Positions 39,173 through 40,049 of a stretch of 44,826 nt of DNA are shown one piece after another. Positions within the stretch are counted from its first letter, which is position 1; every line of letters begins with the position of its first letter. The translations under genes and the position numbers were made by a program. Origin of the DNA: a virus (lineage: Duplodnaviria; Heunggongvirae; Uroviricota; Caudoviricetes); IMG/VR virus record IMGVR_UViG_2718218398_000008; one strand, written 5' to 3'. Below the pieces are notes generated by a model. The model saw only the letters and a program-made list of their open reading frames with translations. It made no database searches and was not told the DNA's origin.

Positions 39173-39291
39173 TACCAATTAAAAATTATCAACTGGGCAT
39201 TGTGCTCATTCAGTAAAGAACTAATTCCTATCTTTGCTCTAGGTAGTAATATTAAGCCACCGCAATAATATCTTTACCTAACGGCGTAAGA

Positions 39292-39319
39292 ATCCCGGTC
39301 ACCGTGCCGGGTTTTCTTT
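39292..39319 (+). terminator. candidate intrinsic terminator downstream of cI (CCCGG...CCGGG hairpin plus TTTTCTTTT)
   Basis: Short GC stem followed by T-tract on plus strand. Confidence 0.45.
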
Positions 39320-39457
39320 TGCCCTCCCCTCATCACACACACCGTTAAAAAAACCACCATAACCTCGCTTCAGTTATCGCTATGCGATTCAAGTCACAAA
39401 ATAAATCCATCCTAAATACAACCAGTTATATCTAAAACAACCAATAAAACAACTTTT

Positions 39458-39492
39458 GTTGTTGACGATAAAACAACTATAGTTTTAAATAA
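39458..39492 (+). promoter_or_regulatory. pL-like promoter candidate (TTGACG -35, TAAATA -10) flanked by AAAACAAC/GTTGTT operator-like repeats
   Basis: Motifs read in sequence; same half-site family as in the cro-cI intergenic region. Confidence 0.35.
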
Positions 39493-39683
39493 GTTCATCG
39501 CAACAACACAACGATACGGCAACTACCTGATTCACCGTTGCGATGACCGCTTAGATCCGCAGTTTGAATTTCAGCAGGCTTCGGGGAGTGCGAGGGGTGA
39601 AACGGACGCGTGAACGTCGGTGTGACCAGCTGAAATTAACTCAACATTTCATACCTTAGTCGCTTCAACGAGGCGGCTTAGTT

Positions 39684-39974
39684 ATGACAACCGGCGGCCA
39701 TCCACCGCCTGAATACGCGCAGAAGTCTCTATATGTTCAGCAGCCCAGCTTACGGGCAGGAGTTTTTATGGTTCATCAACATTACGGAACGCAGACCGTT
39801 AATCGCGGTGCGGTCATGCCAGGAATGCTGGTCAAACACAAAGATGGTACCTGGACTGCATCAGCTAATTTACGCGGACGGCTTTATCTGCATCGCGGCA
39901 TCGAGCGCACTTATACCCGTGATTTGCTCGTGGAAGTTTTTCTCGACGGACGCGGCAACGGCCTGAATCACTAA
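39684..39974 (+). CDS. hypothetical protein (96 aa) at the kil position, 3' end overlapping the gam leader
   Basis: Good ribosome-binding site (GAGG); first gene after the pL-like promoter; no Arg-rich N-type motif. Confidence 0.5.
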
Positions 39975-40049
39975 TCCCCTTTCCTGTTTACCTAATCAGC
40001 CCGGCATTTCGCAGGCGATATTTTCACAGCCATTTTCAGGAGTTCAGCC

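Follow-up and report, generated by a model that had tools for sequence, protein, structure and literature searches.

The window analysed here, the whole 44,826 nucleotides (nt) of IMG/VR record IMGVR_UViG_2718218398_000008, is a lambdoid prophage whose + strand corresponds to the leftward direction of lambda. Its early-left operon has no N gene: an untranslated pL leader of 270 nt runs directly into a phrog_294-type kil, followed by gam-bet-exo. Close to the start of this leader lies a conserved and apparently structured RNA element of ~100 nt, here called the core, which we propose, with a probability of about 45%, to be a cis-acting antiterminator RNA that is put-like but unrelated to put. 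Made ~45 nt after the transcription start, the core would act in cis on the RNA polymerase transcribing it, with the logic of HK022 put RNA and an unrelated sequence, and the modified polymerase would read past downstream terminators without any phage N protein. In the window, the first terminator to be passed would be that at 42470, which precedes xis and int; in phi80-like relatives, the target would be the tL1-type terminator downstream of the cargo genes. Whatever the action of the core, the N-less early-left operon is a common natural design and not a defect.

Textbooks present antitermination by N as the switch of lambdoid phages, and the put RNA of HK022-like phages is the only N-less alternative that we know of. 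One of the commonest prophage types of E. coli has neither N nor put, and a specific, structured, promoter-proximal RNA offers a testable candidate for the missing N function. The mechanism of N-less lambdoid phages has so far merely been guessed by authors to be "put-like" (PMC12315714).

A conserved core at the head of an N-less pL transcript

A first-pass annotation of the window, made from its letters, had reported that no N-type open reading frame (ORF) lies between the cI terminator and pL-like promoter on one side and gam on the other, a claim that homology searches bear out. The tblastn check it had suggested, run with lambda N, phi80 N and HK022 Nun, returned only noise from the window, each query recovering its own source as a positive control, and neither Pfam nor PHROGs found an N family among the + strand ORFs at 39.7-43.7 kb. 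The + strand ORFs up to int could be assigned to Kil, Gam, Bet, Exo, small ORFs of DUF1317/DUF1382 type, a DksA/TraR-like protein and an excisionase; absent relative to lambda are N, ral, sieB, cIII and ea10. The first-pass annotation had named N, ral, cIII and kil as the genes that lambda has at this place; of these, kil is present in the window, as a 68-aa match to phrog_294.

The signals leading from the end of cI into the core are the following.

39294..39321, + strand: intrinsic terminator 3' of cI, with the hairpin 39294-39311, CCCGGTCACCGTGCCGGG and a T-run (terminator scan)
39445..39496, + strand: pL-like promoter with operators; -35 TTGACG at 39462-39467, -10 TTAAAT/TAAATA at 39485-39491, spacer of 17-18 nt
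39497..39530, + strand: first ~35 nt of the transcript, swapped with immunity type, at least four versions preceding the same core (alignment A2)
39540..39641, + strand: conserved core element, ~100 nt, with predicted helices H1 (39557-39566/39575-39584) and H2 (39602-39608/39615-39621)

The cI terminator, the TTGACG/TAAATA promoter and the operator-like repeats were all described at first reading and can be located in the sequence. The terminator hairpin (39294-39311) is followed by TTTTCTTTT, and the site also occurs in the isolated phage PhiR34_1; operator repeats ACAAC/GTTGT at 39445-39490 surround the promoter, and 31 nt of this region (39458-39488) are 90% identical, in inverted orientation, to the pR/pRM region. 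Similarity to relatives of other immunity types begins at 39497-39498, which fits a transcription start at ~39498. From this putative start the core begins ~43-45 nt downstream, and it remains constant behind at least four immunity-type-specific transcript starts, with a nucleotide diversity of 0.15 in 39497-39530 versus 0.025 in the core. As a separate observation, the first ~25 transcribed nt, CATCGNAACNANACANCGA (window 39497-39523), are alike in the pL regions of N, put and N-less phages (L140 891-913; L005 ~2270-2300), and a NANNAT motif at about +12 to +18 of this initial stretch might serve as a sigma-dependent pause signal.

Comparison of two clades provides the case for structure in the core. 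Between them, H1 shows a compensatory double change from A-U to C-G, another from G-C to A-U, and a change from U.G to C-G, and H2 shows one compensatory double change (A-U to G-C); the predicted pairs hold in 92.6% of cells, versus 27-47% in slid controls. RNAalifold, applied independently to a balanced sample, returned the same helices as two abutting stem-loops with three compensatory pairs. Long unpaired stretches of the core, such as CGGGGAGUGCGAGGGGUG, are invariant. The long-range inverted repeat noticed at first reading is also real: GAATTTCAGC (39566-39575) and GCTGAAATT (39629-39637) stand 54 nt apart, and through them the H1 loop AAUUUCAG (39567-39574) is able to pair with CUGAAAUU (39630-39637). 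This loop-tail pairing, in which the clades differ only by wobble-compatible single changes, could give a pseudoknot or else a different closing helix. The 64 variants of the E. coli clade by themselves contained 0 double changes, too little variation to test structure. Searches with a covariance model of the core (R2) found one copy per phage, always promoter-proximal, and no further copy or more distant member in the window, in the right arm of PhiR34_1 or in ~120 other loci carrying hairpin C, a downstream module described below (~1.4 Mb of related loci). A pattern scan detected no third clade with the conserved 15-mer, and Rfam holds no match to the core element or leader.

The position of the core in phi80-like phages bears on its putative function. 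A relative with 81% identity was found among the hairpin-C loci in L263 and in 14 more loci by pattern scan, giving 15 IMG/VR loci, 2 of which are cut at a contig end. Their pL leader begins like that of phi80, and in the L299 group it also ends like it; the core relative replaces the nutL boxA/boxB segment of the phi80-type leader and begins ~57 nt after the putative transcription start of these loci. The phages that carry it have no phi80 N, lambda N or Nun, and no put. Between the core relative and the next tL1-type terminator with hairpin C stand 1-4 genes that are unrelated and vary between phages, either TerB/TciB-like morons or small unknown ORFs, and the core relative is the only conserved feature between pL and this strong intrinsic terminator, which must be passed for expression of kil, gam and the recombinase gene recT. 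Such a pattern is the one expected of a cis-acting antitermination signal. What follows the core differs from phage to phage (the kil leader in the window, a 3-codon ORF and a 400-nt leader in L299, terB in L263), which argues for a role at the level of transcription rather than gene-specific translational control. Rfam found no match in the phi80-like leaders except for a 16S-like stretch: 47 nt of the long leader of L299 (5957-6003; also in L287) match bacterial 16S rRNA positions 237-283 (Rfam SSU model, E 2e-7).

The arrangement seen in the window is widespread. Its leader (39495-39770) occurs in 2230 of 5426 complete E. coli genomes (41%), O157:H7 among them, in a single copy per genome and with few exceptions at no less than 95% identity. 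PhiR34_1 carries it at 99-100% identity, and it is present in ~15 further isolates, including Turner, PhiR5_1, PhiR26_1, PhiR47_2, PhiR68_2, 4A7/4C10, 1W, 3W, D2 and Perceval; PhiR68.2 serves as a plaque-forming phage in infection assays (PMC13190303).

Other accounts of the leader

The strongest competing account, which we regard as unlikely though in no way far-fetched, dispenses with processive antitermination altogether. It holds that tL1 and the part preceding it were lost, that kil-gam-bet-exo are expressed once the repressor is inactivated, and that the leader is an ordinary 5' untranslated region tuning Kil translation or mRNA stability; the core would be a relic or serve another purpose, such as resisting Rho, and xis and int would be reached by leaky read-through or from another promoter. 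Several observations favour this account or count against an antiterminator. In all 126 of 126 window-type copies the core is joined directly to hairpin C, with no terminator before kil-gam-bet-exo, and the junction looks as if a deletion had ended within the U-tract of what was once tL1. Comparison suggests that the whole lineage lost the tL1-type terminator long ago, together with the sequence in front of it. With that terminator missing, kil-gam-bet-exo stand behind no intrinsic terminator in the window lineage, and the core could there be a tolerated relic. On the right side, the coding strand of viable PhiR34_1 shows no convincing intrinsic terminator between cro and Q, and, in contrast to the paired putL/putR of HK022, no second copy of the core is found in the pR operon. 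Constraint on the leader is only moderate. Its diversity of 0.027, which picking the sample by an 18-mer within the leader lowers slightly, lies well above the values at codon positions 1 and 2 (0.003-0.010); third codon positions of neighbouring genes are about twice as diverse (0.041-0.054), which counts in favour of the antiterminator. Moreover, kil loci of Citrobacter, Kluyvera, Enterobacter and Silvania also lack N and have unrelated leaders, the window leader showing no similarity to kil loci in these other genera (z below 2).

Two further points bear on the strength of the structural case. All three compensatory changes stem from one split between two clades, and thus represent few independent events. 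RNA folding, which the first-pass annotation had proposed to examine together with covariance, gives unremarkable energies (z = -1.2 for 39495-39700 and -0.2, not significant, for the core), and the evidence for structure comes from the comparison with relatives. The annotation's suggestion of a cis-acting RNA element in the leader is supported in part, circumstantially, by a conserved core with covariation at the nutL position, and finds no backing in the energy scores. N proteins vary so much that homology searches cannot settle their absence, and an unrecognised trans-acting protein is therefore also conceivable.

An operon without antitermination nevertheless leaves two things unexplained: the retention of the core upstream of strong terminators that block kil, gam and recT in N-less, put-less phi80-like phages, and the compensatory changes that maintain its helices. 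The persistence of terminators between exo and int in viable family members also counts against it. The relevant site in the window is this one.

42470..42497, + strand: intrinsic terminator-like hairpin with T-run, within the pL operon and 5' of the DksA/TraR-like gene, xis and int (terminator scan)

Its sequence also occurs in lambda (~30.69 kb), where we take it to be tL3, and in PhiR34_1. The pL operon of this plaque-forming phage contains two intrinsic terminators before int, one after exo and one common to the window (42470-42488) and lambda.

A different possibility, which we consider improbable, is that the core is not a self-sufficient RNA and serves as a nut-like loading site for a trans-acting factor, either an unrecognised phage protein encoded elsewhere or the host factors NusA/B/E/G and SuhB as in rrn operons. 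The core does lie at the position of phi80 nutL, and its long invariant unpaired stretches, CGGGGAGUGCGAGGGGUG for example, are as expected of a binding site. Furthermore, some phi80-like copies are followed by AGCUCUUUG, and the immunity type of the window has an almost perfect boxA of rrn type behind cro.

38123..38135, - strand: boxA-like CGCTCTTTAACAA just 3' of cro, the sole match with at most 2 mismatches in the 44.8-kb window

This site is one base off the rrn boxA consensus TGCTCTTTAACAA and conserved in six phages, all of the N-less family. It is absent from 4A7 and the phi80-like loci, and boxA was rejected as a general family feature because only one immunity type has it; no boxB hairpin follows it. 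The pL leader itself (39497-39767) contains no boxA with at most 2 mismatches and, by reading only, no boxB-like hairpin. Nor does any conserved protein gene accompany the core, whose neighbours vary.

The first-pass annotation had raised the alternative that the early-left operon suffered a deletion that made the prophage defective. The region from N to cIII is indeed absent compared with lambda, and an IS66-family element and morons between P and Q mean that the prophage may be defective for other reasons; a private loss of N-ral-cIII is very improbable all the same, given the identical arrangement in 41% of complete E. coli genomes, in PhiR34_1 and in other plaque-forming phages. Scarcely credible is an arginine-rich mini-N peptide from the leader ORF 39564-39659 (MNFSRLRGVRGVKRTRERRCDQ...), whose KRTRERR resembles the motif of N proteins and which is fused in frame to Kil in most relatives (TAG 39657 reads CAG in most variants, giving a 128-aa ORF annotated 'Kil' in PhiR47_2): natural indels of 1, 2 and 5 nt break the frame, diversity shows no codon periodicity, the TTG has neither a good start nor a Shine-Dalgarno (SD) sequence, Pfam and PHROGs give no N-family match, and the same nucleotides form helices kept by compensatory change. 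We rejected the 31-aa and 128-aa forms alike on the grounds of indels, periodicity and family matches.

If the core is a self-acting antiterminator, it would found a new family of such RNAs, unrelated in sequence to HK022 put, that replaces N/nut in a large lambdoid group carried by ~40% of complete E. coli genomes. The neighbouring conserved hairpin with a polyproline leader peptide, located just after tL1-type terminators in many lambdoid phages, would be another element not described before. We put this broader proposal forward tentatively, as a possibility. Phages would then have evolved the modification of polymerase by RNA alone twice independently, and the proposal, if true, would be relevant to the activation of the Kil, Red recombination and excision genes in thousands of E. 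coli lysogens, O157:H7 among them.

The hairpin-C module, kil and the surrounding prophage

Between the core and the Red genes, the transcript contains the following features.

39649..39687, + strand: hairpin C, three-tier, with an SD-like GAGG in its 3' arm and an outer helix that includes AUG 39684
39684..39767, + strand: short upstream ORF, MTTGGHPPP..., whose stop is lost in the window, where it continues in frame into kil
39693..39709, + strand: hairpin D, GGCGG-CCAUCCA-CCGCC, encoding GGHPPP (alignment A4 and per-sequence folds)
39743..39762, + strand: small hairpin GCCC-AGCUUAC-GGGC, then the kil SD AGGAG (RNAalifold, 64 variants; pairs invariant)
39768..39974, + strand: kil, 68 aa, 207-bp coding sequence (CDS), cell-division inhibitor type (phrog_294, E 1.3e-37, residues 1-68)
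39968..42759, + strand: lambda-type block with gam (40050-40346), bet (40352-41137), exo (41134-41814) and homologues of orf60a/orf63/orf61

The fold of hairpin C recurs in 10 named phages, among them phi80, HK225, HK639, CobraSix, S9-5, ENT1 and KO-TP1, and in 56 of 57 unique IMG/VR cores, with at least eight inner-helix sequences, all of them paired. Hairpin D is nearly invariant in its nucleotides across distant phages, and hairpins C and D together give z = -4.0 for the window copy. Outside the window, the short ORF encodes a peptide of 16-21 aa ending in ...EVLY, the census counting 41 copies of the 21-aa form and 13 of the 16-aa form. The module formed by hairpin C and the short ORF is not in Rfam. 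Outside the window-type family it lies directly 3' of a canonical tL1-type intrinsic terminator whose sequence varies (7 named phages and 56 unique instances in IMG/VR), the annotated tL1A of phi80 being one such terminator, and farther upstream stands N (phi80) or putL (HK639, CobraSix, S9-5). The 126 window-type copies lack this terminator, and in them the module is joined to the leader upstream of it at a constant 40 or 45 nt. Because it is present beyond the terminator in phages with N or putL, the module is not an N substitute; on the phages compared, it is a separate, widespread element common to N, put and N-less phages, and its most likely role is to adjust how well the kil message is translated or how stable it is. 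In the spacer between the core and hairpin C (39639-39650, alignment A2), TCAAC TCAAC becomes three units in some variants (a 5-nt indel), which looks like a slippage-prone junction at the presumed deletion scar.

The 96-aa ORF that the first-pass annotation had placed before gam exists (39684-39974, with gam at 40050). It is not a single protein, being the upstream ORF joined in frame to the 68-aa Kil, which starts at ATG 39768 behind the strong SD AGGAG (39758-39762). Upstream of this ATG, the frame is disrupted in natural variants by indels of 1, 2 and 5 nt, and diversity has no codon periodicity; we therefore rejected the N-terminal extension, which is not kept in frame, and take the 68-aa product as Kil. 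The protein matches no Pfam family, and RefSeq annotates the 207-bp CDS in relatives, labelled Kil or 'phage encoded cell division inhibitor'. In other phages the nucleotides of the small hairpin (39743-39762) recur upstream of the next gene.

Beyond kil, positions 39968-42759 are 96.6% identical over 2793 nt to lambda 33193-30402, which comprises gam, bet, exo, orf60a, orf63, orf61 and further sequence; Pfam matched Gam (E 4e-63) and also DUF1382, and PHROGs agree on this lambda-type block. By these matches the early-left operon is a mosaic, in which a non-lambda leader and kil module are joined to the lambda Red module.

The regulatory genes of the window on the other side of pL are laid out as follows.

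38483..39172, + strand: cI-type repressor, 229 aa, 690 bp (Pfam Peptidase_S24 and HTH_3; the mechanical ORF runs from 38417)
38378-38148, - strand: cro, YdaS-type
38078-37539, - strand: "cII", YdaT-type, after which come O and P
25841-25152: Q, PF06323 (Pfam/PHROGs)

Relatives of the cI gene carry the annotation 690-bp S24 peptidase or cI. The slot between the repressor and pL, the rexAB equivalent, is empty in the window; in the relatives L001, L002, L015 and L017 the same slot holds defence-like cargo, namely GevT/GevA, a HipA-like kinase with DUF3037, or a SIR2 family protein. An IS66-family element (28549-30965, + strand) with three transposase ORFs (phrog_1013/623/688) separates the replication genes from the ninB-rusA-Q region; it is antiparallel to pR transcription and may render the prophage defective in late gene expression. 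An adjoining esterase-like gene (phrog_3341; 27690-28478, + strand) is also antiparallel to pR transcription. A gene for a 1421-aa inverse autotransporter (intimin/invasin-like, with IAT_beta and Big_1 repeats; 31310-35575, - strand) occupies the slot of ren and the nin region of relatives; it has promoter-like sites of its own, ends in a strong terminator (31298-31278) and is moron-like in appearance. The right arm of PhiR34_1 (6000-16000) has what we take to be the gene order of DLP12: emrE, ybcK, ybcL, ybcM, ybcN, ninE, ybcO, rusA, ylcG, Q and porin. On this presumed order, the family of PhiR34_1 and the window looks like an intact form of the defective K-12 prophage DLP12.

Likeness to known antitermination and leader systems

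The put RNA acts on RNA polymerase through its beta' zinc-binding domain; it needs no protein factors and overrides terminators at a great distance downstream. The core resembles the put of HK022 and HK639 in being promoter-proximal in the pL transcript of an N-less lambdoid phage, in its scale of ~70-130 nt, in its two predicted adjacent stem-loops and in being followed by variable genes and then terminators; moreover, the put phages HK639, CobraSix and S9-5 carry the same downstream hairpin-C/kil module as the window. It differs in having no sequence or covariance-model similarity to put, in starting ~45 nt into the transcript rather than at +3, and in having no second copy after cro, where the 69-nt cro-cII spacer contains only the boxA-like sequence. 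The comparison used a put covariance model (R1) built from five putL (HK022, phiEt88, S9-5, CobraSix and HK639) and two putR (HK022 and phiEt88), with the hallmarks of stem I AGNCG/CGNCU and a conserved GGCGGG..CAGG..CGGCAAU core. Under default filters it found no put in the window, and switching the filters off (35500-40400) gave 4.7 bits at best, versus 60-100 bits for true sites; an nhmmer search of the window for put was likewise negative. We thus rejected membership of the core in the put family, and the proposal is one of put-like action only. Homology of the leader by sequence to the phi80 nutL leader or to HK022 put was also rejected, alignment scores being at shuffle level.

With the N-nutL system of lambda and phi80, the core shares the nutL position of a phi80-type leader, and the window has a boxA-like site after cro. 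Unlike those phages, it has no N-like ORF, its pL leader has neither boxA nor boxB, and the boxA after cro is without boxB. The same post-cro CGCTCTTTAACAA recalls, in its sequence, the boxA/Nus antitermination of rrn operons; unlike the rrn case, it is confined to the pR side and to one immunity type.

Proline-rich leader peptides couple ribosome stalling to downstream expression, for example in Salmonella mgtP. The hairpin-C module may be comparable to such leaders, since it opens a short ORF with three consecutive proline codons, its SD-like sequence and AUG sequestered in a conserved hairpin. It differs from mgtP-type leaders in that the nucleotide invariance of GGCGGCCAUCCACCGCC suggests an RNA constraint as well, and in that the window ORF is fused to kil.

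Finally, in N-independent lambda derivatives of the nin5 and byp type, early genes can be reached without N because a terminator is missing. The window is like them in having no tL1-type terminator before kil-gam-bet-exo. Unlike these laboratory mutants, the window lineage is natural and abundant, and it keeps both a conserved, apparently structured RNA and terminators farther downstream.

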